Made by a program: the position numbers and the translations under genes. The notes under the pieces are model-generated. The model was not told the origin of the DNA. It saw only the letters and a list, made by a program, of their open reading frames with translations, and did not search any database. DNA of 64,000 bases from Bacteroidota bacterium. GTDB lineage: Bacteria > Bacteroidota > Bacteroidia > Flavobacteriales > Flavobacteriaceae. This document shows positions 7,977 through 38,130 of the stretch, one piece after another (the stretch's first letter is position 1; each line of letters starts with the position of its first letter). The DNA lies in the NCBI GenBank assembly GCA_039715085.1, contig JBDLIB010000001.1, positions 691 through 64,690 on the forward strand. Reading direction: 5' to 3'.

Positions 7977-8864
7977 TTAAGTTAACTCTTGAATAATTTC
8001 TTTCCTCTTCTCTGCTAAATTTGAAAAAGGAATAATATAGATATGGAAATTATAACCTGTAAATTCTGACTTGTTGATTTGGAAATTTATTGAATCAACC
8101 ATGCTCTCAACTTCCTCTTTAATTTTCTGTCTAATATGAGTTCTAAATTCACTATTCGATTTATTACTTTCTTCTTCACTTATTTCAACATCATAGCCGA
8201 GAAAGATGCCAAAAGAATAATCTGTATTTATTTCACTTTCTCTAGCATTTGGTATAATTACTTTTTTTAGAAATTTATATAATTCAGGATTAGCTGTTTC
8301 CTTAATTAATTGACTATTGATTAAACTAATTTCAAATTCAATTTTATTTTCACTTAATAGCTTTGATAGAGAACCAAATGCCTCATATATACCTGTTTGT
8401 AAGCTTGAATTTAGTTTTGATTCTCCAAATATTAATTGATAATCGGTTTCTGATATTTTCAATAAGTGTACTCCATCTGCTCCTTTTACATAATCATTTT
8501 TTGCTGTTTTAATTTCTAGTTTTGTTAGGATTTTTGGAGCATTTAAGTGTGACTCTAAAAAGCAGTAAAGCAAAATTTCACCTAACTCTCCTTCATTTGA
8601 AGAGTATCTTCTAAGCTTATCTTGTGCTTTAGATACTAATGTTGCATATTCCTGTGCACCAATTAGTTGTTGAACCTCTGTTCTAGATAATGCAAAATGA
8701 TAGAGTTGATTTGATAAGAGTTTTACAAGTTCATCATAAGCAAATGCATTATTTTTCACTTTTAAAATAAAGACATTAACCTTATTTGCCTTGGCTAATT
8801 CTAAATTTTCTATATCGTTATAAAATAAATCTAAAAAAGTTTTTTTTACGTTAGTTTCTATCAT
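7977..8864 (-). CDS. hamA: Hachiman HamA (DUF1837-like, PD-(D/E)xK-type)
   Basis: GELGEILLYCFLESHL...GADGVHLL...LIFGESKL pattern, 295 aa, paired with the helicase. Confidence 0.75.
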   Translation of the reverse strand: MIETNVKKTFLDLFYNDIENLELAKANKVNVFILKVKNNAFAYDELVKLLSNQLYHFALSRTEVQQLIGAQEYATLVSKAQDKLRRYSSNEGELGEILLYCFLESHLNAPKILTKLEIKTAKNDYVKGADGVHLLKISETDYQLIFGESKLNSSLQTGIYEAFGSLSKLLSENKIEFEISLINSQLIKETANPELYKFLKKVIIPNARESEINTDYSFGIFLGYDVEISEEESNKSNSEFRTHIRQKIKEEVESMVDSINFQINKSEFTGYNFHIYIIPFSNLAEKRKEIIQELT

Positions 8865-16700: not shown

Positions 16701-19100
16701 TTAGATCTTATTAAATTCAAGTATGGCTTTTTTCATATTTTTTGTTTTATTATAAATGGCCATTATTGCCTCGTTTTCGGCTCCGTCAGTAAGATATGCT
16801 GCATATACTTCTTTGGGAACTTCCAATCGAAAGATGTTACTTTCCTTACCTATCTTGATGAACATCTCTGTATATTTTCTCTTTCCACTAAGGTCATTCT
16901 TGATGGATCTTAATTGGTTAAGGTCATGATTAGTGAGGCTTAACCTCTTTTGTAATTCATCATATCCCTTTTCATTATTTAAGCTGTAGATCACCTGCGT
17001 ATTCTCTAAAATACTTGCCGATGTTGCATTATTGGGAAGTTGATTGATGGATTGCAGGATAATACCAATAGCTCCATTCTGTTTTCTAATGGCCTGGTAA
17101 TAGAATTCTACACTTTCCAATACATTGTCAAACTTGAGTTGTTTGGCAAATTCATCAAATAAGATAATTCCTTTTTCTGCTTTGTTTCTCCATATGGTTC
17201 TCTGAATAGCTGACTTGATCAGTTTTAGCATTACCGAAAGGATCTCTTTATTATCCTTGATCTCATCCAATTCAAAGACGATCATTTTTTTGTCTTCTAT
17301 TTTATAGGTCTGGTCTTCATTCACTTCAAACAAAAAACTATACAATCCGTCTCCTACATATTCCGACAGGATATGTAAAAAATCTTCAATGTTAAAATGT
17401 TCTTTTTGTATATGTAATTCCTGTAAAAGTGTTTGCTTTTCCCTTTCTATAAAATCATAAAGGCTGCTTAAAGAATGATTATCCTTAGTGTCTTTATAAT
17501 AAAAACGAAGGATTTTCTTTAAAGACACTTCCTGTGCTTTGGTAATATCTACACCTGTAGCATACAGTTCAAAGAGGAAAGTAGCTAAGTCTTCCAAGCG
17601 TTCCGGGCAGACATCGCCTGCCTTTGATATGTAAAATGGATTAATTCCCAAGTTTTTACCTTGTTCATACCTTAAAATGATATGGTCTTCCGGATACAGC
17701 TTGGCAAACTTAGCATAAGATCCCCCCAGATCAATAATGACCAACCTAACCTCACTTTCAAAATATTGTCTTAATATATTATTTGCTAAAAAGGATTTAC
17801 CTTCTCCCGTTGGTGCGAAAATGGCAAAGTTCCTGGCTTTTATTCTTTTCTTTTTTTCATCCCAGACATCCTTCAGTACAGGGATATTATTTTGCCTGTC
17901 GTTAAATATGATCCCCTTTTCATCCGATTTGTAATTGGTATTATTAATGTATAAACACAAAGCGTGTTTAAGATCGGTTACATACAGGTCTTCATTGGAA
18001 AAATTAGAAGAAAAACAGAAATAACTATTCATAATAAAGTTTTTTCTTTCTTCTCCTTTTGGATAATATGGTACTATGTCCAATTCTTTGAATTCTGTCT
18101 TTATCTTAGAGGCAATCGTTTTTAGGTGTCGAGCTTCTCGACTCCAGAAGATGATATTTAAATGACCTCGAATAATTCTGGAAGTATCATCACTGTTTAT
18201 CTGGTCAACGATGTGTTCGATCTTTTTAAGTACTACCTTGTTTTGTGTGCCAAAATTGGAACTCTTGTTGAGGTCCTCTATTTTTTTGTCTAAGATCTTT
18301 CGCCATTTTTGTTTGTCATCTAAATAGATAATCTGGTTAATAATATGATTTTCTTGTAGATCAAGTCCTAAACCATCGATAAAGCCTTGGTGAAAGATAA
18401 AATCGTCGGAAGTGAATTTATCATTGGTTTTACTGCTCTGTACATTTTCACCAAAACACAGTTCACTGTTTACTGCCAATACATCAAAATAATTATCCCC
18501 AATAGCAATATTGGATTTGTTTAATAAAATGTCCGTATCAAAACCTTCATTAAATCCATTAAAATAATCAAAGGTGAGGTCTAAGGCCTCCTCTTCAACT
18601 AAAGGGGTAAGTGTCATTTTCTTTGTGTTATTGATATAGGAAACAGCATCGTTTACAGCCGCAATAAATTCCTGTACTTTATGATCTATCTTCTTATGAA
18701 CTCCTTTTTCAACTTCTACAAAAGGGTTGGTATATTTTGCAGTATTCATAGCTTTATTAAATGGAAGAATAAAAAATAAACAAGAATTGTGTTTTAAGTG
18801 CTCTCTTCCTTTAAAGTGATCATGGGTAGCTTTTTCTAAAAAGCTTTTATTTGGAAGTATCTCTGCTGTATATTCCTTTCTTTGATAGATATCTTGTTTG
18901 TGTATTATCGATGTATTTGGCAATGATTTTAATGCCTGGAACCAGGAGGTATGGATATCTTCAAAATCTTTTTCCGATAAAGAATATATCTCAGGCAGGT
19001 CTGCTTTATAGCAAACAACTACATTTCCATTAGCGGCGAACACAATGTTTTCTTCCATTGCCAAAATGGGAAAATATCCGGATAGATTAATCTTCTTCAT
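16701..19100 (-). CDS. traG: TraG-family conjugative transposon ATPase (VirB4-like)
   Basis: 799 aa, Walker A FAPTGEGKSF, Walker B-like GIILFDEF. Preceded by two small TM proteins. Confidence 0.85.
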   Translation of the reverse strand: MKKINLSGYFPILAMEENIVFAANGNVVVCYKADLPEIYSLSEKDFEDIHTSWFQALKSLPNTSIIHKQDIYQRKEYTAEILPNKSFLEKATHDHFKGREHLKHNSCLFFILPFNKAMNTAKYTNPFVEVEKGVHKKIDHKVQEFIAAVNDAVSYINNTKKMTLTPLVEEEALDLTFDYFNGFNEGFDTDILLNKSNIAIGDNYFDVLAVNSELCFGENVQSSKTNDKFTSDDFIFHQGFIDGLGLDLQENHIINQIIYLDDKQKWRKILDKKIEDLNKSSNFGTQNKVVLKKIEHIVDQINSDDTSRIIRGHLNIIFWSREARHLKTIASKIKTEFKELDIVPYYPKGEERKNFIMNSYFCFSSNFSNEDLYVTDLKHALCLYINNTNYKSDEKGIIFNDRQNNIPVLKDVWDEKKKRIKARNFAIFAPTGEGKSFLANNILRQYFESEVRLVIIDLGGSYAKFAKLYPEDHIILRYEQGKNLGINPFYISKAGDVCPERLEDLATFLFELYATGVDITKAQEVSLKKILRFYYKDTKDNHSLSSLYDFIEREKQTLLQELHIQKEHFNIEDFLHILSEYVGDGLYSFLFEVNEDQTYKIEDKKMIVFELDEIKDNKEILSVMLKLIKSAIQRTIWRNKAEKGIILFDEFAKQLKFDNVLESVEFYYQAIRKQNGAIGIILQSINQLPNNATSASILENTQVIYSLNNEKGYDELQKRLSLTNHDLNQLRSIKNDLSGKRKYTEMFIKIGKESNIFRLEVPKEVYAAYLTDGAENEAIMAIYNKTKNMKKAILEFNKI

Positions 19101-19851: not shown

Positions 19852-20499
19852 ATGAAGCTTAAAAAAATCTTATTTCTGCTTATTCTTATGAAAATATGTT
19901 TGGGTTTTGCTCAAATTGATCAGAGTAAAATAAGAATTGTGATCGATCCCGGTCATGGCGGATTGGATCCGGGTGCAATTGGAATCAACAGGGGTCTTGA
20001 AAAAAATATCGTATTGGATGTTGCTAAAGAAATTGTAAAGCTTAATAAATCTATACTGGATGATAAGTTTGATATTTATCTTACTCGTTATGGGGATACT
20101 TTTGTTTCCCTTTCTGATAGAAGTGAATTGGCCGTTGTTCTAAAGGCTGATCTGTTTGTCTCGTTACATTGCAATGCTTCTAAAAACTATTCTCAGGGAA
20201 TGGAAATTTATGTTTATTCCGGCACCGGTAATAAAGAAAAGATTAAACAATCTATTTCCTTAGGTTTTGAAGTTATTTTTGAAAGTAACAGGAATCTTGG
20301 TATCAAAAATCGGGGAGTAAAGTTTGCTAATTTTCAGGTACTTCGTGAAACAATTAATTACTGTCCGAGTATTCTAATTGAAACCGGGTTTATTTCAGAT
20401 AAAGATGAATCTGGTTATTTATCTGAAGACTCTAATGTTAGGGCAGTTGCTTTAGTGATTCTTTTATCTATTAAAAATTCTTACATTGAAATATTATGA
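19852..20499 (+). CDS. N-acetylmuramoyl-L-alanine amidase (Amidase_3)
   Basis: IVIDPGHGGLDPGAIG and LFVSLHCNA motifs, with a signal peptide. Confidence 0.8.
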   Translation: MKLKKILFLLILMKICLGFAQIDQSKIRIVIDPGHGGLDPGAIGINRGLEKNIVLDVAKEIVKLNKSILDDKFDIYLTRYGDTFVSLSDRSELAVVLKADLFVSLHCNASKNYSQGMEIYVYSGTGNKEKIKQSISLGFEVIFESNRNLGIKNRGVKFANFQVLRETINYCPSILIETGFISDKDESGYLSEDSNVRAVALVILLSIKNSYIEIL

Positions 20500-20535
20500 T
20501 TGTAATATATGTGAGATTTTTTGTTAATGAGATAA

Positions 20536-20775
20536 TTAATTATATAACTTATCTACATCAATAGCATGATAGCCACTTTCATTATCTATGCGATGTTCTA
20601 TCCTACAGAGATCATTGCCTTCTTTATCTTTATATAAGTCAGTAATTACAGTACAGGTAAAATTTCTTTTGTTATCTGTTACACCAATATTGAAGCTGCG
20701 ACGTTCATTCACTTTTTTTATTTCACCTTTGTTAGCTTTTCCCTCTAAAAACGTAACTAATTCCTTTGTTTCCAT
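20536..20775 (-). CDS. hypothetical small protein
   Basis: 79-aa ORF with no recognisable domain. Confidence 0.3.
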   Translation of the reverse strand: METKELVTFLEGKANKGEIKKVNERRSFNIGVTDNKRNFTCTVITDLYKDKEGNDLCRIEHRIDNESGYHAIDVDKLYN

Positions 20776-20916
20776 ATTATTCTAATACTTTTATTTAAAG
20801 ATACAAAAATTAATTTCTATAATTAATATTTGTTTATAAGTAGATTATTTTGTTGATAAAAAATATCACATATGATGATATAATAAAAATGTTAAAATTA
20901 TATTTGTAACTGAAAA

Positions 20917-20928
20917 ACAAATATTTGT
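20917..20928. promoter_or_regulatory. perfect 12-bp palindrome ACAAATATTTGT abutting the repressor start codon (candidate operator)
   Basis: Self-complementary 12-mer at 20917-20928. A half-site-like TATTTGT also occurs at 20901-20907. The ATG of the XRE-S24 gene is at 20930. Confidence 0.4.
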
Positions 20929-20929
20929 A

Positions 20930-21529
20930 ATGAATCGAATTAAAGAAATATTAGAGCTTAGAGGGGTAAAACAAACTTGGTTAGCTGAAAAGCTAAACAA
21001 GAGTTATAACATGGTAAATTCGTATGTTCAAAACCGAAGACAACCAAGCATTGAAATTCTTTACGAAATCGCAGTTTTATTACAAGTTGAAGTAAGAGAA
21101 TTACTAGATACTAATCAATCAATAATTAAAGAAAATAATACTAACGATACTGTAGAAATTCCATTAATTGGCTCTGTTTCTTGTGGACTACCAATTTTTG
21201 CAGAAGAAAATATTGAAGCTAAAATACCTGTATCAACAAAATTAATTAGAAAATCTAGTGATTACTTTCTTTTAAGAGCTTCTGGAGATTCAATGGATAA
21301 AAAAGGTATCAATAGTGGAAATTTACTTTTGATAAAACAACAGAATGTTGCTGAAAATGGAGATATAGTACTTGCACTAATAGATGATGATGCAACTGTA
21401 AAAGAGTTTATAAATAATACAGATACTATTGTTCTAAAACCCCATTCTACTAATCCAAAACATCAACCAATAATACTTACTTCCGACTTTAGAATTCAAG
21501 GTATTATTAAAACCGTAATAAAATTATAA
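20930..21529 (+). CDS. XRE-family HTH fused to an S24 (LexA/CI-like) self-cleaving peptidase domain
   Basis: N-terminal HTH (KQTWLAEKLNKSYNMVNSYVQNRRQPS). C-terminal LRASGDSMDKKGINSGNLLLIK...DIVLALIDDDATVKEF, giving an S24 Ser/Lys dyad context. Confidence 0.8.
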   Translation: MNRIKEILELRGVKQTWLAEKLNKSYNMVNSYVQNRRQPSIEILYEIAVLLQVEVRELLDTNQSIIKENNTNDTVEIPLIGSVSCGLPIFAEENIEAKIPVSTKLIRKSSDYFLLRASGDSMDKKGINSGNLLLIKQQNVAENGDIVLALIDDDATVKEFINNTDTIVLKPHSTNPKHQPIILTSDFRIQGIIKTVIKL

Positions 21530-21540
21530 ATTTAATATAA

Positions 21541-22551
21541 ATGGCTACAAATAAAAACGAACATCTTCAAAAAGTACTTGATACCCACGATATAAACAAA
21601 GTAGAAAATCTGGATAAGTTTATTGCAAAGAAAAATGCGGTAAAGAATGCTTTAAATGACAAATTTTCTGACACCAAGGCATCTAACTCTATAGATTCTG
21701 GATCATATGCAAAGCATACAGCTATAAATACAAAGTTTGATATAGATTGTTGTATTCCTTTTAAAAAGAAAGAGGAAGAAGAAGATAAAGGTTATAGTAA
21801 TCTTAAGGATATGTTTGAAGACGTATATAAGTATTTAAAAAATGAATATACAGAGAATGACGATGAAATATCAAAAGATGATGTTAGAAAACAGAAAGTA
21901 TCTGTCGGTATGAAATTTAATATTGATGGAGAAGAATTTGATATGGATGTAGTTCCTGGACGAGAAAGACCCCATAACAATAATTATAAAACTAATAACA
22001 CAGATTTAAGTTTATATATTCACCCTCCGAATCGTTCAAAAAAAGAGGTTGATGATAATAAAACTCGAATTAAAACAAATATTAAGAAACACGTTGATTT
22101 GTTAGGTGGTTCAGAAAGAACTCACGAACGTAAAATATCCAAACTGCTTAAGGTTTGGAAAACAGAAAGAAAGAATCAAAATGGCGGTAAATTGATAAAG
22201 TCTTTTATGATGGAATTATATACTAAAGAATCTTTTGATCAAGCAATTGAAATACCAAATGGGTTATGGGAAAAAGTGAAAATGGTAATGAATCATATTA
22301 TTGATAACATAACCGAAAATGATTTAGTAGACCCTGTCAATTCTAGCAATATAGTGTCAGATTCAATGAGTGATACTGCTAAATCTGACACTAAACGTGA
22401 TATGAAAAAGACAATAAAAGAGGTAGATGAAGATTCTGATAAGATAAAAGAATATTTCCCTATAAATGAAGATTATGATAATGATGAAGATGATGATTCA
22501 AGTTCTAAAGCATCTTCAGTATCAATTTTAAGCACAAGTAAGTTTGGATAA
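21541..22551 (+). CDS. CD-NTase (cGAS/DncV-like nucleotidyltransferase, SMODS-type) with an acidic tail ending in Gly
   Basis: GSYAKHTAINTKFDIDCCI (GS...DxD) and third acidic residue in FDMDVVPG. OAS-like helix LLKVWK...KSFMMELY. C-terminus ...DDDSSSKASSVSILSTSKFG. Confidence 0.8.
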   Translation: MATNKNEHLQKVLDTHDINKVENLDKFIAKKNAVKNALNDKFSDTKASNSIDSGSYAKHTAINTKFDIDCCIPFKKKEEEEDKGYSNLKDMFEDVYKYLKNEYTENDDEISKDDVRKQKVSVGMKFNIDGEEFDMDVVPGRERPHNNNYKTNNTDLSLYIHPPNRSKKEVDDNKTRIKTNIKKHVDLLGGSERTHERKISKLLKVWKTERKNQNGGKLIKSFMMELYTKESFDQAIEIPNGLWEKVKMVMNHIIDNITENDLVDPVNSSNIVSDSMSDTAKSDTKRDMKKTIKEVDEDSDKIKEYFPINEDYDNDEDDDSSSKASSVSILSTSKFG

Positions 22552-24694
22552 TACAAAAGAAAAGAATAAAATTATAAAAAGAATAAATGGATTAATTAAA
22601 AAAGATAAAGATGTAGAAATTGTTGAAAAATTCGAAAAAAAGGATAATCATTTTTCTGGAAAAATTAAAGTAAATCATTTAAATGAAAATCTACTTTTTG
22701 ATATACATATACCACATCATTACCCATTAACTCATCCAAATTCAGATAATATTTCCATAATCTTTAGGAATAAAGATTACATTGGATTGAATCATATTAA
22801 TTTAGACGGTTCAGTGTGTTTTCATCCAGATAAGGGAGATGATTTTGATAGAAAACTTCTTTATGAATTAAAATGTCTTAAACAATGGATTAGGGATTAT
22901 TACATTTTTAATAAGGAGGATGACAATTACGACTATTTAGTTCATACTAGTGAAAGAGGCAGGATAGATAAACTATATTTTACAAATACGGAGAACAACT
23001 TCGCCAAAAATTCTTTTGGAATATTTAATTATTCCATTTTTTCTGACGAGAAATATGGTGACTCCAAATTACCAATCAAAAAAATGTTTAGGTTGGGTTT
23101 TAATAATGGAGAAACGGATAATTGGTCGAAAACTTTTACCGACGAATTAAAAAGCAAAACTTGTAAAAAAGGTCTTTATTATTTCATTGAAGAAGAACCA
23201 ATTCGTAAAAAGTTAAAAGGAAGAAAAAGTATCGAAACATGGAATGAGGTTAAAGGTTTTCTGTCTGATGAATTCATTGAGTATTTATATCGAGGATTAA
23301 AGCGAGGATTTAGCAAAGGTTTTTATAATGAAAACTACCTATTCTTGTTAATTGGTTATAAAATCCCAAACGACGAAAGTTATGAGGAGCATTGGGATTT
23401 AATTAGAATATCTAAAAGAAACCTACCTATTGATTACAAAAGGATTCCTAAAAAGGAACAAGTCGATTCAAAAAAAAGTTTCGAGTATATTCTTAAAAAA
23501 AATAAAATTAATTGGGGAAATACAGAGAATATAGATTATTCTCGCTTTTTTGGAAGAGGAAAACTGGATAAAAAAATTACTGAATCAAAAATTCTGATAA
23601 TTGGGTGTGGAGCTTTAGGGAGTTCATTAGCAGAGATTTTAGTAAGAGGAGGAGCAAAGAACATTATTCTTGAAGATTTTGATAATATAAGAGGTGGTAA
23701 TCTCTGTAGGGCGAATTATGATCTTGAGGATATGATTTTCTTTAAAACTGATAGCTTAATAAAAAGACTAAAATCAATTTCTCCATTTGTTAATTTGGAT
23801 GCAATTTCTGTTAAATTGAATAATTATGATTTAAAAATTGTTGGAGAATATTTTGATAAAAATATTGATATAATTTTTGATTGTTCAACAGATAATGAAG
23901 TAACTTATATTATTGATAAATTAAATTTTACGGGAGAAACTTTTAGTTTGGCTATAACAAACAATGCAAAATCATTTGTCTCATTAACTGGCAAATATTT
24001 AACCAAACAAGCAAATACCATTTTTGAATATATAGAAAATGAACCTCCAACTTATTTTGAAGGTACCGGTTGTGGTTATCCAACTTTTGAAGCAAATTTC
24101 AACGATATCAATGCCTTACTTAATATTGGTTTAAAGATTATTAATGATAATTTTTCAAAAGATAAAGTAAATGAATCTTTTATAATAACACCAGATTTTG
24201 AAGATCAATTCAGAATAGATATTGAAGAATATGAATATTATTATTGTGATTATAATAAAAGTTCAATACACATTTCGAAAAGTGTTTTAAGCGAAATAGA
24301 AGAAATTACAAATGTTCATTATCCGAAAGAATTTGGAGGTGTTTTTGTCGGTTTTAAATCAGAAGTAGGTTTTATTATAACAAATATTCTTGTGCCAGAT
24401 GAATATAAAAATGGAAGAACAATTTTTGTTAGACATCCAGGAGCGTTAAATGAAAGGTTAAGAGAAATACATGATATAACAAATGGTAAAATTCAATATT
24501 TAGGAGAATGGCATTCTCACCCTGATGGTCCAACAACCCCTAGTAATACTGATATCAATGCTATGAAAGATATAGCAAAAGACAAAAAAGTTAATGTAGA
24601 TAAACCATTATTAATGATTGCAGAAGTTGGACAAATACCTTTTGACAAAGACCTCTATATATATTCAAATAAAAAATTAAGAAAATATGAGTAA
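22544..24694 (+). CDS. E2-E1-JAB triple-domain protein (Cap2-like fused to Cap3-like)
   Basis: E2-like HINLDGSVCFHPD. E1/ThiF Rossmann ILIIGCGALGSSLAEILVRGGAKNIILEDFD. JAMM motif EWHSHPDGPTTPSNTD preceded by PKEFGGVFVG. Confidence 0.8.
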   Translation: MDNTKEKNKIIKRINGLIKKDKDVEIVEKFEKKDNHFSGKIKVNHLNENLLFDIHIPHHYPLTHPNSDNISIIFRNKDYIGLNHINLDGSVCFHPDKGDDFDRKLLYELKCLKQWIRDYYIFNKEDDNYDYLVHTSERGRIDKLYFTNTENNFAKNSFGIFNYSIFSDEKYGDSKLPIKKMFRLGFNNGETDNWSKTFTDELKSKTCKKGLYYFIEEEPIRKKLKGRKSIETWNEVKGFLSDEFIEYLYRGLKRGFSKGFYNENYLFLLIGYKIPNDESYEEHWDLIRISKRNLPIDYKRIPKKEQVDSKKSFEYILKKNKINWGNTENIDYSRFFGRGKLDKKITESKILIIGCGALGSSLAEILVRGGAKNIILEDFDNIRGGNLCRANYDLEDMIFFKTDSLIKRLKSISPFVNLDAISVKLNNYDLKIVGEYFDKNIDIIFDCSTDNEVTYIIDKLNFTGETFSLAITNNAKSFVSLTGKYLTKQANTIFEYIENEPPTYFEGTGCGYPTFEANFNDINALLNIGLKIINDNFSKDKVNESFIITPDFEDQFRIDIEEYEYYYCDYNKSSIHISKSVLSEIEEITNVHYPKEFGGVFVGFKSEVGFIITNILVPDEYKNGRTIFVRHPGALNERLREIHDITNGKIQYLGEWHSHPDGPTTPSNTDINAMKDIAKDKKVNVDKPLLMIAEVGQIPFDKDLYIYSNKKLRKYE

Positions 24695-25514
24695 AAAAGT
24701 TGATTTAAAAGGTCTATTTAATGGCATGCAATCTCAAATGATTTCAGAAATGAAAACGAATAGAGACCATATCGAGCATTCTACAACAAAAGGTGATGCT
24801 TTTGAGGATATTTGGATTGATTATTTAAGGACATATTTACCAAACAGATATTGCGTTGATAAGGCGATTATTATAGATTCTAAAGGAAACAAAAGCCAAC
24901 AAATAGATTTAGTAATTTATGATCAAACTTATACACCTTTCGTCTTTATTCAAAAAAACACAAAATATATTCCAGCAGAGGGAGTTTATGCTGTTTTTGA
25001 AGTCAAACCAGAACTAAATAAAAAGTATATACTTTATTCAGGTGAAAAAGTTGAAAGTGTTAGAAAACTATATAGAACATCAGCAAGTATAATTGATAGA
25101 GGACAAAAGAAAGATCCAATTAGTCTTACAAAAATATTAGGAGGAGTTTTGTCTTTTGAATCCAAATTAAAAAAAGATGAAACGATTGAAGGTCATGTTA
25201 AATCATTAAAAGGGCTGAAATCTATTGATATTGGATGTGCTGTGAATTACAAAAGCTTTTATGTTGATTATGATAAAGATGATAGTATTTTAAAGAATAA
25301 GGCAGATACAGCAGAAATATATAACAAACAGTTTTTGGCCTTTTATAAAGATAGGAAATTTGATTCTATAGAGTTTAGTTTTAAGTATAACTCTTTAGTT
25401 ACATTTTTCCTGCAATTATCAAGATATTTACAACAAAGTATTGGAACAGTTGCAGCGATAGATTTGGGAGCTTATGCTGAAGCAATAAATTTTGATATTG
25501 ATGAAGAGATATGA
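24687..25514 (+). CDS. nucC: NucC-like restriction-endonuclease-fold effector nuclease
   Basis: KGDAFEDIWIDYLRTYLPNRY, QQIDLVIYD then exactly 30 residues to EVK (ID-x30-ExK), VESVRKLYRTS, ILGGVLSFES. By my recollection this is colinear with NucC. Confidence 0.75.
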   Translation: MSKKVDLKGLFNGMQSQMISEMKTNRDHIEHSTTKGDAFEDIWIDYLRTYLPNRYCVDKAIIIDSKGNKSQQIDLVIYDQTYTPFVFIQKNTKYIPAEGVYAVFEVKPELNKKYILYSGEKVESVRKLYRTSASIIDRGQKKDPISLTKILGGVLSFESKLKKDETIEGHVKSLKGLKSIDIGCAVNYKSFYVDYDKDDSILKNKADTAEIYNKQFLAFYKDRKFDSIEFSFKYNSLVTFFLQLSRYLQQSIGTVAAIDLGAYAEAINFDIDEEI

Positions 25515-26050
25515 TGGAAAATAATTATTGGATATTTGGGTATGGTTCTATTATTTGGGATAATAATGACATTAAGCCTGTTAAATCAATTGATTCAAAG
25601 CTAGTTGGAGCACATAGAAGTTTCAATAAGAAATCTACTTTGAATAGAGGAACTAAAAAGTTTCCTGGCTTGGCTTTAGGACTCGAATATGGTGGAGAAT
25701 GTCATGGAAAAGCATTTCTTATTAACCAAGAATCCTTTGAAGTGCTTAAAAAGAGGGAAGGAGGTTACAAAGAAATTAAGACTCCTAATAGAGATATTGA
25801 AATTTTAGATTCCCAAGGAAATATAATTGAAGATTGTATTGTTTTTTTTCCAAATTCTACAGGTAAAAATTATCTCCCTCCAAACACTAGTTTAAAAGAA
25901 AAAGCAAATATTATAATAGTTGGAAAAGAAGGCACAAAGAGTAATGCTAAAGATTATTTGAAACAAATCAAAAATTTCCTAAATGAATATGGAATTGAAG
26001 ATAATGAGGTTGAGGGTTTATATAAACTAGTATTTAAAAATATTTTGTAA
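25511..26050 (+). CDS. ChaC-like gamma-glutamylcyclotransferase family protein
   Basis: WIFGYGSIIW, HRSFNKKSTLNRGT, PGLALGLEYGGECHGKAF, LKKREGGY. This is the ChaC/GGCT signature order. Confidence 0.75.
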   Translation: MMENNYWIFGYGSIIWDNNDIKPVKSIDSKLVGAHRSFNKKSTLNRGTKKFPGLALGLEYGGECHGKAFLINQESFEVLKKREGGYKEIKTPNRDIEILDSQGNIIEDCIVFFPNSTGKNYLPPNTSLKEKANIIIVGKEGTKSNAKDYLKQIKNFLNEYGIEDNEVEGLYKLVFKNIL

Positions 26051-26052
26051 AG

Positions 26053-27126
26053 ATGAAAAGGAAATCCATTAAGTATGGTAAGAATGGATTGCTGATTTTT
26101 GGATTTAGTAATGCTTTTATAAATGCAGTTCAACAATTGAATTCTATCAAAGAAAATCCTGAGCAAAAATTTGATTGGACACGATTAATAAAAGCTGGAG
26201 GTAAAGGCGCTCTAATTGGAGGAATAGGAGGAGCGTTTGTTGGTGAACTTGCAGATATAGAGAATTCTAAAGAAAAGCCTCTTAACACAAGTTCTATATT
26301 GTTAAAAGTTGTTTCTAATGTCAGACTTAACAAAAAGAATCCTAAGTATCTGATAATGTCTAATAAAGGTAGTAGAATATCACGATTAATACAAACAAAT
26401 TTTAAATCCAAATTGAGTGGATCTCCAATTAAAATTGGTTCTACAGAAGATGGCACTTCCTTATCCGATGAATTTGATATAGATATTACAGTTGCGTTTA
26501 ACTCTAACAGTTATAATTCTACGAACGAGATGTTTGACACTATGTATAAGTTTTTAGATATAAACTATACGGATTATGATTTAATTAAAATTAGAAAACA
26601 GAAAAAATCAATTGGTATTTTATATGAAATTGAGGGAGATGATTACAAGATTGATATTGTCCCTTATAAAATAAGTAAAAATATAAGGAATAAAACTCAA
26701 GGTTACTTATTTGTAAATAATAATTCCCTTTTTAAAAATGATAGTTATACAAAAACAGATATAACTAGTCTCAAGGGTATTAGTTTGAATAACAGTCAAC
26801 AGAAATTATTAATTGCTTTTAAGAATTGGAAAAAAGAATATTCAATACCAATTAGTTCACATTTGCTAAAAATGTTCATTATTGATGCCTATGATTTTAA
26901 TAGAGGTTTTATTCCAAGAGATTTTACAAATAAAATAATAATGATAGTCAAATATATTAAAGATAACATTTTGACAAGGCGAATTGTTAGTGTGGAGAAT
27001 ACCAATAATATTCTGACCAATTTTGATGATTCTGACAAATTATTAATAGAAAAAGAGTGTTCAATGGTTTTATGTGATTTTGATTATCAACCTAATTCAA
27101 TTTTAAAATATTTTAGTGTCCAATAA
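26053..27126 (+). CDS. second nucleotidyltransferase (SMODS/CD-NTase-like) with an N-terminal glycine-zipper segment
   Basis: GGKGALIGGIGGAFVG glycine zipper. GSTEDGTSLSDEFDIDITVAF (GS...DxD) and KIDIVPYK. LLIAFKNWKK...SSHLLKMFIIDAY helix pair. Confidence 0.65.
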   Translation: MKRKSIKYGKNGLLIFGFSNAFINAVQQLNSIKENPEQKFDWTRLIKAGGKGALIGGIGGAFVGELADIENSKEKPLNTSSILLKVVSNVRLNKKNPKYLIMSNKGSRISRLIQTNFKSKLSGSPIKIGSTEDGTSLSDEFDIDITVAFNSNSYNSTNEMFDTMYKFLDINYTDYDLIKIRKQKKSIGILYEIEGDDYKIDIVPYKISKNIRNKTQGYLFVNNNSLFKNDSYTKTDITSLKGISLNNSQQKLLIAFKNWKKEYSIPISSHLLKMFIIDAYDFNRGFIPRDFTNKIIMIVKYIKDNILTRRIVSVENTNNILTNFDDSDKLLIEKECSMVLCDFDYQPNSILKYFSVQ

Positions 27127-27471
27127 AGGTACCCTAAATATTATGTAAATAGAATCTCGATGTTAAACTTGGTCTCATAGAATTTTGGTCAAAATAATAG
27201 GAGAAATAAGCGTTTATATTTTCGGTGTTTAATAATATAGTTTCTAAAGAGTTCTATTTAAAATAATATTAAAGAGTTAAATTTATTCTTGATAATTTAG
27301 TTTAATAGTAATCTTAAGAAGATAGATTGCTTACTTAAACATAATGTAACGAGATATCAATTATTCCAAAAAGAAAAGAGAAAACGAAGTTAAGCACTGT
27401 CGTGCTTGGTATTCTTGCTTTCTCTTTTCTTTTTTTCTCGTTTTTTCATTTCTCTTTTGAAAAATAATGGA

Positions 27472-28128
27472 TTAAAGGCGTTTGTCTTTTGTGTCCTTGC
27501 TAAAGGAGATCAAATTGAACATTTCTTTCATTCTTGAACGTACACGGTTTCCGTAATAACTTTCCAATTCTTCCGCATTTAGATTGGTTGTTGCATGGGT
27601 TATGACTCTTTTTGTGATAAACAGATCATACCGGCTTAACAGGATCTCTCCAATAACATTGCAATCATTTCCGTAACGTTTCAGGTTCTTTTCCAACCCA
27701 AGGTCGTCAAAACAAAAGGTTTTTGTACTACTGTAATCTGTTATTACCCCGTGTCCATCCTTAATAAATTCAAAAGAGATGATCCTGGTTGACTTTATAT
27801 CATAATTATATTTCCTGATAGAGATATACCTGACTAAATTCATCAAGGTGGTTTTTCCGGAACCGACAGGCCCGGAAAGTAAGACTCCCCTGTTGAGATC
27901 TATCTTATGTTTTTTGCTGTTCTTTTTATCCCTGACGATATAGACCAACAGTTTGAAAATTACATGATGATCCTTTCTGTGGATTTTGAATTTACTTCCG
28001 TAAATGTACTTTCCTTTCGTTTCTAAAAACCGGATCATCTGGTTAAAATTATAATCAATCTTATTTCCGGAAATATTCCCTATGGTAAATTCTTCTCCCT
28101 GGTGGTTTATTTTATAAGGGGATGTCAT
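27472..28128 (-). CDS. DnaC/IstB-like AAA ATPase of the mobile element
   Basis: Walker A LLSGPVGSGKTTL, Walker B CFDDLG. Overlaps the upstream gene. Confidence 0.6.
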   Translation of the reverse strand: MTSPYKINHQGEEFTIGNISGNKIDYNFNQMIRFLETKGKYIYGSKFKIHRKDHHVIFKLLVYIVRDKKNSKKHKIDLNRGVLLSGPVGSGKTTLMNLVRYISIRKYNYDIKSTRIISFEFIKDGHGVITDYSSTKTFCFDDLGLEKNLKRYGNDCNVIGEILLSRYDLFITKRVITHATTNLNAEELESYYGNRVRSRMKEMFNLISFSKDTKDKRL

Positions 28129-28801
28129 AATCTTTGTCGTTATTTACGTGTAAGTAGTTTGAATTTTGGTCAACTGCATTTTCGATTTTTTCTTTTCTTT
28201 TTTCATCGGCTTTAATAATCCAGTTTCGGGCTGCAGCTTGCCAATTTTTAATTTCAGCCTTTCCTCCGATTTTCCATCCCGTGGATTCATAATAATTGAA
28301 AAATATTTCCGCTTCTGCTTCCGTACTTTTATTTTCTAAAAAGAATTTTTTAACATTTTCAAATTCTATATATATAGAAAGTTTATGTTTATTTTGTTTA
28401 TAGTTTTTATATGTTTTAGAAGGTACCTGTACTTGTACATTATTAGTACTAGAGCGTATCAGAGCTTGTTTGTTATCCGGACGGTTGCGTACCGGTACTT
28501 GTTTTGAACCTGTCCCTAAATTGAACAAGACAACTTTGCTACCTTTGAACGGATTATAAGAGGGATAATATCTGATGTAATTCCATCGGTGCAGATCTTT
28601 AATGCATTTATGATAGGTAGATTTGGAACCGATCTTGGATAAGGCCATAATCTCCCCTCTGCTTATGGAAACAGGGTTGGAGAAACGGTTTAAATTCCAA
28701 TATTGAAATAATGCGAGATACATACTTATGTGGGTGGTATTCAGCCTGTCGTCTTTTGAAAATACATGTAGTGCTTTTGTAAGGTGTTTGATGTAGTTCA
28801 T
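28112..28801 (-). CDS. winged-helix, Rep/DnaD-like mobile-element protein
   Basis: 229 aa between an xis-like HTH gene and a DnaC-like ATPase. No strong motif; context-based call. Confidence 0.35.
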   Translation of the reverse strand: MNYIKHLTKALHVFSKDDRLNTTHISMYLALFQYWNLNRFSNPVSISRGEIMALSKIGSKSTYHKCIKDLHRWNYIRYYPSYNPFKGSKVVLFNLGTGSKQVPVRNRPDNKQALIRSSTNNVQVQVPSKTYKNYKQNKHKLSIYIEFENVKKFFLENKSTEAEAEIFFNYYESTGWKIGGKAEIKNWQAAARNWIIKADEKRKEKIENAVDQNSNYLHVNNDKDYDIPL

Positions 28802-29773: not shown

Positions 29774-30598
29774 TTATTCCTCTGATTGATCCATGCGTTG
29801 TATCAACGAATTTTTAAGTTTTTCTATGAATTTTGTCCTGTCTTTTTTTCTGCCTTTTAATTCTATGTATGTCCTGTAAATATCCCCCATATCTATATTT
29901 AAAAGTTTTTCTATAGCTGAAGCTAGTTCTTTAATGTCTGAAGAACCATTATCTATAACTTTACAAGTATGAAGTGCATAAACAAGTTCTGTTATTTCTG
30001 CTTTTGACCCTGTCCATTTCAAATTAGATTTGAATCCGGGTTCTGATTTATTGTTTTTTAAATCATTTAGTTTTTGATGTAAATAGGTAATATATAGTTC
30101 AAATGCTTTTACTTTAGCTAATAATGCATCATGTGATGTGCTGAATTTTGGGGAGAAACAATAGGTTTTAGAATTAGTGAAATTTAGATTATCGCTATTC
30201 TTTGATGTGAAATACAAGGAGTCTAAATGACTCTTGCCGAGATTAATGTATTGAATGAAGTCAATATTGTAAGTATTGAATTTATCAATTTTTTCAATCT
30301 TACGTTTGATGTATTTCTTTTGTTTTCGAATATTTACTTTTGGATATTCGATTTCAAAAGTTCTGATCTTACTGTAATAAATGATTTGACTCAGGGGGAA
30401 ACTTTTGATATTCTTAAAGAAATTTATTTCATCTTCTTCATAGGTGAAAGAAGAAATCAGGATACTCCTGTTCATGTATTCCAGTGAGTTTCTACATGCT
30501 AAAATTGATTTGTTTGCCATGCATACAATATTGTTGTTTTTGCACTTTATTTTCTCTAATTCTAACTTTAATTTCTCTAGTTGTTCTTTGTATTCCAT
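29774..30598 (-). CDS. rteC: RteC-domain regulatory protein
   Basis: C-terminal LKWTGSKAEITELVYALHTCKVI...IKELASAIEKLLNI block typical of Bacteroidota RteC. 274 aa. Confidence 0.7.
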   Translation of the reverse strand: MEYKEQLEKLKLELEKIKCKNNNIVCMANKSILACRNSLEYMNRSILISSFTYEEDEINFFKNIKSFPLSQIIYYSKIRTFEIEYPKVNIRKQKKYIKRKIEKIDKFNTYNIDFIQYINLGKSHLDSLYFTSKNSDNLNFTNSKTYCFSPKFSTSHDALLAKVKAFELYITYLHQKLNDLKNNKSEPGFKSNLKWTGSKAEITELVYALHTCKVIDNGSSDIKELASAIEKLLNIDMGDIYRTYIELKGRKKDRTKFIEKLKNSLIQRMDQSEE

Positions 30599-35838: not shown

Positions 35839-37878
35839 TTATAATGGGACTGATATATTTATAGTTGTTCCTGTATTAATAATGGAGTCTATTTGAATAG
35901 TTCCTCCCAATTTTTTTACTCTTGAGGCCATATTCTTTAATCCAATTCCTTTTTTGTTGTTTTGAGTGTCAAATCCAACTCCATTATCTTTGATTATCAA
36001 ATGTAGCATTTCTTTTTCTAAAGTAAAATGAATTTCTACAAATGAAGCTTTTGCATATTTGTTAATATTCTGAATCGTTTCCTGAATAATACGGTAAATA
36101 TTTGTTTTAATTTCTGTGTCAACATCTTCCCATACTATTTGATCATCATGACTTAGGTTAAATTCAAAATTGGAGATCTTGCTTTGTTTTTCTAATAGTT
36201 CTTTGACGATTTCAAAATAACTGTCATCGGAACTATGTATATTACTTTTTAATTCATGTGAGATATTACGGATCTCCAGTTCCGTATTATTAATTTCATC
36301 TTTATAAGTCTGATATTTCTTTTTTGTTCCTTCATCACCTTTGATGTCGAAAATATCGAGGCCTAGCCTAATTGCAAATAAACTGCCGAGTACGCCGTCA
36401 TGAAGATCTTCCGAAATTCTTTTTCTTTCCTTTTGTTTGGCTTCATTCATTTTTGAATGCTGAGAAAGCATCAGTTTATAGATTTCCTGGTTGGATTTTT
36501 CCTGTTCTGTTTCCAGTAACAGCTCTTTATTCTTTGCTTTTTGTCTCATGATAAAGGATATCAACAAAACAATAGAAAGTAATAGGAAACTTGTAGCAAT
36601 GATCCAATTTCTTTGTCTGGACAGTTCTTTGGTTTCTTCAATATATTCATCGGTTTCAAATTGAATTCGGGTGAATTTATCCCTGATCTTTCGTTCTTCT
36701 TTTTGAAGGCTGTCTGTTAAAGAAATGTAGTTTCCTAAGTATGTGTCGCTATTGACTTTATCTATTGAGGAAAGTAATTTTAAAGAGGACAATATATCCC
36801 GATTATTGTTTACTTCCTTAGACAAATAAAGGGCATCTTTAGCGTATTCGATTGCTTTTAATGTGTCGGTGTATTTTGTAAAATATTCCGCTAGATGTAA
36901 TTTACTGATTGCTACAGCCGATTTGTTATTAAGGCTATCTCTGATTACTAATGACTTGTAAAACTCTTGAGGTAAGTTTGTGGTATCACCATTCAAAAAT
37001 TTGTTATAAGCTAAATTATCTATTAATCTGGCATATAGATTAATATTTTTAATTCTAACACTATCATTTTTTAATGCTTTTTCAAAATATTTAATTGCTA
37101 TACTAAAAAGACCTTTATACTGATATACTAAACCAATATTATTTAAACTCCATTCTTTATATGTTTTTTTATTTTTTACTTTTCTTAAATAGAATAAGGC
37201 GTTTTTGTGATAATTTATTGATTTATCGTATTCTTCCATATCTTTGAAAGTAATCCCGACTTGATTATAACATCTATAAAGATTAAGGTATTTTTTTAAA
37301 GGTTTAAACTTTGAGATAGCATGGAAAGTTAATTTTTCACTAGCTGTATAGTTTTTAACTCTACCCTGAATAAAGGCCATATTGTACAACATTTTTCCCG
37401 AGTAATATTCATTATTTATGGAGTTGAAGTTTAATAATGCTTTATGATAATGGTAATAGGCACTATCCAATTTTTCTTCTTTCACAAAGAAGTTTCCATA
37501 ATTCCAATGACTATCTGCAATACCAAAAGTATCTTTTAATTTTTTAGATAATATAAATGCATCGCTATTAGTTTTTTTAAAAAAAGGAGTGTCTATATTT
37601 TTGTATGCTTCATAAGCAATTATTGATAAATTTTTATATTTAACAGAATCAATCTTATTTTTGTTATTCAATTGATATGCTTTAAGCAAGTATGATTTTC
37701 TTTTTTCTAATACTAAATTCTTTTTTTTAGCTAAATCTATCCAAATTGTAACACTATCTACTTCAGCAATACTATTACTGATATTTATATTGCTCTTAGG
37801 ATTACAACCGATAGATAAATTTAGTGCAATAAATAAAAATAAATATAAACTAAACCTATTATCCTTTTCTAGTATCAT
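35839..37878 (-). CDS. TPR-containing sensor histidine kinase (HisKA_3 + HATPase_c)
   Basis: N-terminal lipoprotein-like signal, TPR-like repeats, one TM helice (WIIATSFLLLSIVLLISFI), H-box RISEDLHDGV, ATPase DNGVGF...GIGLKNM. Confidence 0.8.
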   Translation of the reverse strand: MILEKDNRFSLYLFLFIALNLSIGCNPKSNINISNSIAEVDSVTIWIDLAKKKNLVLEKRKSYLLKAYQLNNKNKIDSVKYKNLSIIAYEAYKNIDTPFFKKTNSDAFILSKKLKDTFGIADSHWNYGNFFVKEEKLDSAYYHYHKALLNFNSINNEYYSGKMLYNMAFIQGRVKNYTASEKLTFHAISKFKPLKKYLNLYRCYNQVGITFKDMEEYDKSINYHKNALFYLRKVKNKKTYKEWSLNNIGLVYQYKGLFSIAIKYFEKALKNDSVRIKNINLYARLIDNLAYNKFLNGDTTNLPQEFYKSLVIRDSLNNKSAVAISKLHLAEYFTKYTDTLKAIEYAKDALYLSKEVNNNRDILSSLKLLSSIDKVNSDTYLGNYISLTDSLQKEERKIRDKFTRIQFETDEYIEETKELSRQRNWIIATSFLLLSIVLLISFIMRQKAKNKELLLETEQEKSNQEIYKLMLSQHSKMNEAKQKERKRISEDLHDGVLGSLFAIRLGLDIFDIKGDEGTKKKYQTYKDEINNTELEIRNISHELKSNIHSSDDSYFEIVKELLEKQSKISNFEFNLSHDDQIVWEDVDTEIKTNIYRIIQETIQNINKYAKASFVEIHFTLEKEMLHLIIKDNGVGFDTQNNKKGIGLKNMASRVKKLGGTIQIDSIINTGTTINISVPL

Positions 37879-37968
37879 TTTTATAATTGAAAATAATTCA
37901 AACAAATCTATAAAAAAAGCCCTAATCAAATTGATTAAGGCAAATTTTATAATTTTATATCAAAATTA

Positions 37969-38130
37969 TTAATCTTTTTCATCATCAATTTCATCAGCAT
38001 CATCCTCACCAGTCGCAACAACTTCCATGGTAGTACTGTTAATTTCTTCTTCTGTAATATCATCTGCTGTACAAGCGAAAAAAAGGTTTGAAAATATTAT
38101 GAACGCAATAAAGTAAATTGTTTTTTTCAT
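37969..38130 (-). CDS. small acidic lipoprotein-like peptide (53 aa)
   Basis: MKKTIYFIAFIIFSNLFFAC lipobox-like signal, then an Asp/Glu-rich tail (TGEDDADEIDDEKD). Directly upstream of the kinase on the same strand. Confidence 0.4.
   Translation of the reverse strand: MKKTIYFIAFIIFSNLFFACTADDITEEEINSTTMEVVATGEDDADEIDDEKD

Follow-up and report, generated by a model that had tools for sequence, protein, structure and literature searches.

CBASS (antiphage signalling system based on cyclic oligonucleotides) operons are usually described as consisting of one cyclase, its regulators and one effector. The operon treated here, at positions 20930-27126 of a 64,000-nt stretch of Flavobacteriaceae DNA (contig JBDLIB010000001.1; this whole stretch is called the window), continues beyond its effector gene with a gene for a ChaC-family enzyme and a gene for a second nucleotidyltransferase (NTase). 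Do these two genes belong to the system, and what might they contribute to it? An earlier, sequence-only reading had seen here a six-gene CBASS-like operon of unusual content. According to our analysis, both extra genes are recurrent but optional accessories of such operons, independent of each other, and we consider it probable that they are functionally linked to the operon.

The CBASS core

Six open reading frames (ORFs) on the plus strand follow each other with a 12-nt gap, two 8-nt overlaps, a 4-nt overlap (ATGA) and a 2-nt gap, in this order, as was checked on the sequence (Table 1). The block has a G+C content of 27-29% and a positive GC skew. With the same ORFs and junctions being found, and with the sole terminator-like hairpin located after gene 6, the view that the six genes form one tightly packed unit was confirmed.

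Judged from their sequences, genes 2 to 4 almost certainly represent an ordinary type II CBASS core with a NucC effector. All four components are there with intact motifs: a cyclase with an intact active site and a C-terminal Gly, Cap2, Cap3, and a homologue of NucC-type effectors. ORF and profile searches of 20930-27126 revealed no HORMA or TRIP13 ORF, which type III would require. Compared with type II CBASS in general, what differs is the fusion of Cap2 and Cap3 into one protein of 716 aa, NucC as the effector, a predicted LexA-type repressor as the first gene, and the two genes after the effector.

The primary CD-NTase (cGAS/DncV-like nucleotidyltransferase, gene 2) matches the PADLOC model for CBASS cyclases, PDLC00803, at 8e-66. 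Its nearest solved structure is CdnC (6p80), a synthase of cyclic tri-adenylate (cA3). An acidic linker precedes the C-terminus ...STSKFG, which marks a Cap2 substrate. This FG terminus is kept in 19 of 20 cyclases from operons with Cap2/Cap3 and is absent from E2-only and type III operons. The cyclases of three E2-only operons (L009:7559-8518, L010:7597-8553, L011:7556-8512; L-numbers denote retrieved relative loci) end in ...QKPWCDC, ...PWCNC or ...PWCKN and not in Gly, the Cys-containing terminus being conserved.

The Cap2-Cap3 fusion is covered end to end (residues 8-716 of 716) by PDLC00827, a 711-position E1-E2 model, at 3.6e-260, and carries the motifs GCGALG (GxGxxG) and HSHPDGPTTPSNTD (HxHx7Sx2D). 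Gene 4 matches solved NucC structures at 4e-44 to 3e-35 (6uxf at 3.9e-44, 6p7o at 6e-36), and the catalytic residues D74 and E105-V-K107 (D...ExK) are present.

PADLOC thus holds near-full-length models for three core proteins (cyclase, fusion and NucC). Together with the catalytic motifs, these matches bear out a type II core with a C-terminal-Gly CD-NTase, E1/E2 and JAB, as well as the NucC-like effector, all of which the sequence-only reading had proposed. Its judgement that the content is unusual could be upheld for the two accessory genes only. The E2-E1-JAB fusion and its pairing with NucC are already known and modelled in PADLOC; they are not unusual in type II, because the models are near full length and because Cap2/Cap3 goes with this type of operon in 13 of the loci retrieved.

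A variable 3' end

Except for three look-ups that started from NucC, the loci were collected by way of the accessory genes, so that the counts given below do not measure how often these genes occur in CBASS operons as a whole. What follows the effector gene differs between the three NucC homologues that are closest among those on long contigs: one operon consists of the three-gene core only (L122), one has the core and an overlapping 131-aa gene (L123), and one has the core and a ChaC gene (L124). Because of these differences, we regard the 3' end as a variable accessory slot in which both extra genes are optional. The 131-aa protein, which takes the place of the extras in a Tara metagenome contig (L123:7815-8699), is without family match and is followed by a HAD_SAK_2 protein. 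Another HAD_SAK_2 protein is encoded upstream of the Maribacter operon (L001:1999-2466).

The ChaC gene and the second NTase gene are found together in only 2 of about 35 loci, and the idea that they form a pair was rejected on this ground. Each of them recurs in its own right. Had the extras been missing from homologous operons, or had they belonged to a separate system, the sequence-only reading would have been given up by its own account; ChaC was found in six other homologous operons, and the second NTase belongs to a CBASS operon in 24 of 24 informative loci. That reading had also placed both genes outside the described CBASS cores, and no match in the literature was found that contradicts it. 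Full-text searches, whose coverage does not extend to the censuses of Burroughs et al. (2015, NAR) and Millman et al. (2020, Nat Microbiol), retrieved neither a CBASS-terminal Gly-zipper cyclase family nor a defence-associated ChaC clade nor a link between CBASS and an S24 repressor. Both extra gene families seem to be undescribed.

The ChaC-family gene

Gene 5 matches PF04752 at 2.1e-22 (80.5 bits, cut-off 21 bits). Its AlphaFold2 (AF2) model has a pLDDT of 93 and superimposes on human ChaC2 (6ky1) with a TM-score of 0.83 and a root-mean-square deviation of 2.1 Å. In 28 clade members, there is no variation at Y11-G12-S13 and R82-E83, residues which belong to the YGS and REGGY motifs and include the catalytic Glu83. 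Score, fold and motifs agree with the earlier assignment to the ChaC family.

A word-limited protein search with gene 5 returned 29 clusters with 51-85% identity, all named from Flavobacteriaceae. These proteins represent a minimal form of 175-183 aa, found only in Flavobacteriaceae-type genomes as far as seen, with at least 51% identity within the clade as opposed to about 30% to generic ChaC. The full-length Pfam domain, the fold, the YGS motif and Glu83 are shared with ChaC, ChaC2 and yeast Gcg1, from which the clade is set apart by its minimal length and by its location at the 3' end of defence operons.

Seven CBASS operons have a NucC-ChaC end in which the stop codon of the one gene and the start codon of the other overlap or abut, namely that of the window and six others in which ChaC has the same position (L118, L001, L003, L006, L121, L124). 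Only in the window and in L118 is ChaC followed by the second NTase. Members of the clade also close three non-CBASS operons (L002, L005, L120). Altogether, ChaC is the last gene, or stands directly before the second NTase, in 10 of 10 informative contexts from four defence-like operon types, and it overlaps the upstream gene or lies at most 7 nt from it. As a control, 82 loci of generic ChaC (28-36% identity) were inspected, and no CBASS gene was found nearby. A metagenome scan with the ChaC alignment was discarded as a source of relatives because its patterns were not specific enough: it yielded 80 loci, every one of them a generic ChaC gene (28-36% identity), and these were kept as a negative control. 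Scans of viral contigs with ChaC, the Cap2-Cap3 fusion and the second NTase gave no relatives except four ChaC matches in giant-virus bins.

This distribution has to be weighed against the possibility that ChaC, as a metabolic or cargo gene, is hitch-hiking without a role in defence, having been inserted by accident into a permissive 3' slot. PADLOC has no model for ChaC, ChaC proteins at large are housekeeping enzymes of glutathione turnover, the gene is absent from many homologous operons, and a literature link of ChaC to defence was not found. We nevertheless consider an accidental insertion unlikely. The clade is distinct from generic ChaC, it sits tightly at the operon end in all ten contexts and in four types of defence-like operon, and its catalytic residues are invariant. 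Moreover, ChaC has been kept between nucC and the second NTase gene in the window and in L118, although these loci have diverged to the point that their second NTases are only 67% identical.

All characterised relatives degrade glutathione according to the names of their PDB entries, and depletion of a thiol is favoured over hitch-hiking. By analogy with these relatives, ChaC might be a glutathione-depleting co-effector, a role that we regard as possible though doubtful. The use of a ChaC enzyme as a weapon has a precedent in the effector RipAY (PMC4959522).

The non-CBASS operons with a ChaC end deserve separate mention. In Galbibacter, a 1268-aa protein (L002:4188-7994) is without match in Pfam, PADLOC, NCBIfam and PDB, and ChaC (8001-8540) lies 7 nt downstream; the large protein may be an undescribed defence protein which uses the same ChaC accessory. 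Another cluster (L120:2967-8528) codes for an N6/N4 methyltransferase, a UvrD-PD-(D/E)xK helicase-nuclease (943 aa), a 323-aa protein without assignment and an overlapping ChaC, and is followed by HicAB. This cluster, too, has the appearance of a defence system that ends in ChaC. In Flagellimonas (L005:5048-8543), the gene for a 990-aa ResIII/SWI2_SNF2 helicase of superfamily 2 (SF2) overlaps the ChaC-clade gene by 20 nt, and RadC adjoins. Finally, a gene of about 360 aa and a patatin-domain gene are found just upstream of two of the NucC-ChaC CBASS operons (L006:1-2455 and L121:238-3010), which probably represents a second, type I CBASS (CapV-like) in tandem.

The second nucleotidyltransferase

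A genome scan for the second NTase retrieved 27 loci. Three of these tell nothing about the context, since their sequence begins within the gene; in every one of the 24 informative loci, the second NTase ends a cluster of CBASS genes that all point the same way. These differ in their core: 13 are type II (Cap2 and Cap3, fused or split), three are E2-only (PDLC00872), six are type III with HORMA and TRIP13 (L012, L014, L016, L019, L022, L033), and two are truncated. The effectors are NucC (18 loci), Cap4 (nuclease-SAVED; 3 loci) and NARF-domain proteins (2 loci), with one degraded case (L030). NucC directly abuts the second NTase in 16 of the 24 loci. Additional genes between effector and second NTase code for a 254-aa Mrr-type nuclease (L015, L020, L023), a GNAT protein (L022), an S24 repressor (L033) or ChaC (window, L118). 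A conserved gene downstream of the second NTase was searched for among its loci and was not found.

In three operons, one each of type II, E2-only and type III, the second NTase is 54-57% identical to the copy in the window, while their primary cyclases are, in this order, 64%, 41% and 26% identical to that of the window. Upon clustering by UPGMA (unweighted pair group method with arithmetic mean), the second NTases track host group and effector, not core type. We infer that the second NTase is a modular add-on to CBASS with nuclease effectors and that it accompanies the operon's effector end and not the regulatory core. The idea that it replaces a dead primary cyclase was rejected, as the catalytic motif of the primary cyclase (GS...DxD) is intact in every operon that has a second NTase.

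At the protein level, at least 190 clusters make up the family; their length is about 355 aa, and every one of them stems from a Bacteroidota-type source. The AF2 model of gene 6 (pLDDT 83) shows helices at residues 4-34 and 42-72, which form a hairpin (pLDDT 55-81), followed by a confident CD-NTase core. A Foldseek comparison of gene 6 with PDB has CdnC (6u7b), CdnB (7ljo) and CdnD at the top; the solved structure nearest to each of the two NTases of the operon is that of CdnC, the cA3 synthase. In an alignment of 46 members, the GxxxGxxxGxxxG zipper in helix 2, the residues G129, S130, D142, D144 and D201, and an ENTNN motif are invariant. The claim of a second, catalytically plausible NTase with a Gly zipper is in accord with these data. 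When the 84-residue N-terminus alone was searched against 1.84 billion representatives, only the own family or its fragments were matched, and a Gly-zipper hairpin fused to other domains was not found among them. The hairpin matches the Gly-zipper_YMGG family weakly. The protein ends in ...YFSVQ without a C-terminal Gly tail and so lacks the mark of a Cap2 substrate; the C-termini of the family are variable and follow directly after the last helix. A tblastn search of plasmids for the second NTase gave one weak, partial Paracoccus match.

With an active site of this kind, the second NTase may be a cyclase which produces a signal for the effector, and we put this forward tentatively. Two other roles were weighed. 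According to the first, it would be a guard or decoy in the manner of Panoptes: a nucleotide made constitutively would also be caught by the sponges or nucleases of phages, by which means anti-CBASS proteins would be detected or titrated, and the hairpin would serve as membrane effector or anchor. Panoptes itself consists of a second synthase and a membrane effector, is often encoded right beside CBASS, and has the sponge Acb2 as its trigger (PMC12657218). A second synthase beside CBASS and a membrane-type element would be common to both. A guard would also be in line with the position at the operon end, which is independent of the type of the CBASS core, with the unique small-residue hairpin and its weak similarity to Gly-zipper_YMGG, and with the missing conjugation tail. 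Still, we consider this role distinctly unlikely. Panoptes is built from the mCpol synthase OptS and the effector OptE, whereas the second NTase has the Pol-beta/CD-NTase fold and a short fused hairpin instead of a sensor-effector partner (S-2TMbeta, CARF-TM or SAVED-TM), and it lies inside the CBASS operon and not in a two-gene unit of its own. It contains no ligand-sensor domain (no SAVED, CARF or S-2TMbeta), and its hairpin stays below the hydropathy that is usual for transmembrane (TM) segments. In addition, nuclease effectors (NucC, Cap4 or Mrr-like) occur in 21 of the 24 loci, a bias which a generic guard against sponges would not need. The resemblance to Panoptes would be functional and is hypothetical.

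The second of these roles is that of a brake, similar to the immunity factor of a toxin-antitoxin pair, which nucleotidylates or sequesters NucC or consumes basal signal and would thereby protect uninfected cells from being killed by leaky activation. MNT-type nucleotidyltransferases neutralise HEPN toxins by AMPylation, and the tight coupling of the second NTase to the 3' side of a toxic effector, often with NucC directly upstream, as well as its association almost wholly with nuclease effectors, would be expected of such a protein. In fold and sequence, however, it most resembles true cyclases (CdnC, CdnB, CdnD) and not MNT antitoxins, many close NucC operons do without a second NTase, and other genes intervene between effector and second NTase in five loci. 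A brake appears improbable to us, and we retain the signal-producing cyclase as the tentative function of gene 6.

Control of a cyclase through the membrane is not without precedent. The cyclase of a type II CBASS from Bacillus cereus is conjugated to the membrane-associated PspA (PMC11153139). In that case a single cyclase is tethered by isopeptide bonds made by Cap2, whereas the protein described here is a separate paralogue with its own hairpin and without conjugation tail.

Several loci with a second NTase contain further proteins at or near the effector position. The 254-aa proteins mentioned above (L015:9234-9998, L020:9233-9985, L023:9211-9975) have an N-terminal Mrr_cat domain and a C-terminal half without assignment, are encoded between NucC or Cap4 and the second NTase, and may be a second effector. 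NARF-domain (PF20299) proteins are the sole gene product at the effector position in two type II operons that end in a second NTase (L018:9232-9987, L026:9154-10002), and the one from L026 also matches the PADLOC model Mem_03 for proteins with two TM segments (2TM). In Paraflavitalea (L030:4516-11006), primary cyclase and second NTase are both split across frames according to tblastn, and this operon appears to decay by frameshifts.

The first gene and the control of expression

The sequence-only reading gave no interpretation for gene 1. It scores 116.4 bits with the NCBIfam profile TIGR00498 for lexA (cut-off 110.95), and it has Cys85-Gly86, which resembles a cleavage site, together with Ser121 (GDSM) and Lys158 (TVKE), so that the Ser/Lys dyad is intact. 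Based on its domains, the lexA score, the Cys-Gly site and the Ser/Lys residues, the protein is predicted to be a self-cleaving repressor of the LexA/CI/UmuD type. S24 homologues with 61-66% identity over the protease domain are encoded upstream of CBASS in four loci, L001, L007, L023 and the type III locus L019; L033 has one within its operon. The DNA-binding domain varies between loci, being HTH_3 in the window and LexA_DNA_bind in L001. When the regions upstream of the LexA-like gene were compared between the window, L001, L007, L019 and L023, no common operator was found. Palindromes or TGTAT-type repeats are locus-specific there, which fits the swapping of DNA-binding domains. An imperfect palindrome in the promoter region of the window is a candidate for the operator of the repressor (Table 1).

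A repressor that is cleaved by a protease and responds to DNA damage is known from the type III CBASS of E. coli MS115-1 (CdnC-HORMA-TRIP13-NucC with CapH/CapP), which shares the CdnC-like cyclase and NucC with the operon of the window. The latter has Cap2/Cap3 and no HORMA/TRIP13, and a single helix-turn-helix (HTH)-S24 protein would correspond to CapH (HTH) and CapP (metallopeptidase). For CapH/CapP, DNA damage has been reported to induce CBASS expression through the cleaved repressor; the report does not mention LexA or S24 (bioRxiv 10.1101/2022.04.27.489752). Gene 1 itself has only a weak match to capH (1.4e-4, through the HTH), and a metallopeptidase gene is missing. It is best viewed as a counterpart of CapH/CapP in a single protein, the likeness being functional only.

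The candidate promoter element TATATTTG begins 31 nt upstream of the first ATG and ends 24 nt before it. Five copies of TAnnTTTG are observed in this AT-rich stretch while about six are expected by chance, and four of them are located within genes. As the motif occurs at about the chance rate, promoter calls based on it are only tentative. It is very improbable that genes 5 and 6 (25511-27126) are a separate neighbouring system with its own promoter: a TAnnTTTG at 25459 inside nucC and the occurrence of each extra gene without the other and without this core would be compatible with it, but the 4-nt overlap and the 2-nt gap leave no intergenic space, the two extra genes do not form a pair, all 24 informative loci have the second NTase in a CBASS operon, the number of TAnnTTTG copies equals the chance expectation, and the sole terminator-like site follows gene 6.

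Table 1. Features of the operon and its immediate surroundings in the window.
Feature	Nucleotides	Strand	Residues	Characteristics
Candidate operator, imperfect palindrome ACAAAAATTAATT-n5-AATTAATATTTGT	20803..20833			31 bp, 13-nt arms, 92% complementary, promoter region
Candidate promoter element TATATTTG	20899..20906	+		fits Bacteroidota -7 consensus TAnnTTTG
Gene 1, HTH-S24 repressor (predicted)	20930..21529	+		N-terminal HTH_3 and Peptidase_S24
Gene 2, primary CD-NTase, CdnC-like	21541..22551	+		GS54-55, D67/D69, D134/D136 (FDMDVVP)
Gene 3, Cap2-Cap3 fusion, TTG start	22544..24694	+		E2/E1 (ThiF) and JAB/JAMM, 716 aa
Gene 3, E2-like and E1 (ThiF) part	22571-24232	+	~10-563	PDLC00852 over 10-563; ThiF
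Gene 3, JAB/JAMM isopeptidase part	24245-24691	+	568-716	PDLC00890; Prok-JAB
Gene 4, NucC-family PD-(D/E)xK endonuclease, effector	24687..25514	+		PDLC00745 3e-88; DUF6602
Gene 5, ChaC-family gamma-glutamylcyclotransferase	25511..26050	+		PF04752, full-length domain
Gene 6, CBASS-terminal second CD-NTase	26053..27126	+		PDLC00803 1.5e-30
Gene 6, N-terminal helical hairpin	26062-26268	+	4-72	invariant G52, G56, G60, G64
Gene 6, CD-NTase core		+	79-357	invariant G129-S130, D142, D144, D201
Terminator-like hairpin	27389..27410	+		after last gene; sole plus-strand one in 20400-27600

The mobile-element setting

The operon was confirmed, on the basis of the neighbouring genes, as cargo of a Bacteroidota conjugative element (integrative and conjugative element, ICE), as the sequence-only reading had it. 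It is flanked by TraG (16701-19100), Amidase_3, an HTH_17 protein and RteC (29774-30598), and relatives of the operon adjoin TraG, TraM, DUF4138 or RteC in L003, L122 and L124. Two minus-strand genes are found just 3' of the operon, between CBASS and the HTH_17/RteC genes of the ICE (27472-28801 of the window). Their products are a 218-aa P-loop protein with weak nSTAND3/AAA matches and a 229-aa protein without family match. Further downstream, at 37001-38000, the G+C content is the lowest of the window (22.6%) and the GC skew is negative; a 696-aa ORF on the minus strand (35839-37929) has its 5' end here.

A model for the operon

Taking these results together, the best explanation is a type II CBASS operon for abortive infection, carried as cargo on an ICE, with a regulator in front and two optional accessory genes behind. 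We assign a probability of about 60% to this explanation. In the reading that we favour, the operon would be derepressed by DNA damage, a second cyclase under different control would feed the nuclease, and ChaC would act as a metabolic co-effector. From what is known of the families concerned, the repressor would keep expression of the operon low until DNA damage (RecA*) leads to its self-cleavage and to derepression. Cap2 would prime CD-NTase 1 through the C-terminal Gly, and Cap3 would reverse the priming. Upon infection, the cyclase would make a cyclic trinucleotide, most likely cA3, which would assemble NucC trimers into the active hexamer, so that DNA is destroyed and the infection is aborted. 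The second NTase would be a second cyclase which is regulated through its hairpin, by membrane association or oligomerisation, and not by Cap2/3 or HORMA/TRIP13; it might provide a second input to the same effector or amplify the signal. ChaC, once expressed, might degrade glutathione or a related gamma-glutamyl thiol and thus reinforce growth arrest or starve redox-dependent steps of the phage.

Several observations weigh against this model. The two closest NucC operons on long contigs (L122 and L123) do without both extra genes, which are dispensable for the core, and the repressor is present in only some of the ChaC-bearing operons. No ChaC match was obtained in PADLOC, and ChaC has no sensor domain through which its activity could be gated. 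The second NTase reaches 23.3 bits with the Pfam family SMODS and so stays below the gathering cut-off of 26.5. Its hairpin is of no more than moderate hydrophobicity, with a best 19-residue Kyte-Doolittle mean of about 1.3, the conventional cut-off for TM segments being about 1.6; given this value and the pLDDT of 55-81, insertion into the membrane is putative. The effectors found beside the second NTase (NucC, Cap4, NARF) should need different ligands, which fits awkwardly with a single fixed product. As to expression, the TAnnTTTG inside nucC lies 52 nt before the start codon of ChaC and might act as an internal promoter, and the sequencing runs found to contain the locus are two DNA runs from marine metagenomes, with no RNA run among them.

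Going further, the Gly-zipper CD-NTase could be a new class of accessory, a nucleotide synthase that depends on neither Cap2 nor HORMA and serves as a second sensor at the membrane, as a feed-forward amplifier or, in the manner of Panoptes, as a guard against anti-CBASS proteins; ChaC could at the same time be the first gamma-glutamylcyclotransferase to serve as an effector of prokaryotic immunity, shared by CBASS and helicase/nuclease systems. That both should hold together seems rather unlikely to us.

Implications

If the model is true, a conserved family of second cyclases on the effector end of type II, E2-only and type III operons would imply a layer of CBASS that has gone unrecognised. 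This layer might be a second input, an amplification of the signal, a brake or a means against counter-defence. Likewise, a ChaC enzyme that moves between CBASS and helicase/nuclease operons would add a metabolic arm, the depletion of gamma-glutamyl thiols, to phage defence; the closest analogy would be the depletion of glutathione by ChaC1 in stress-induced cell death of eukaryotes. A LexA-type repressor as first gene, finally, may provide a route from DNA damage to CBASS expression that requires a single protein.

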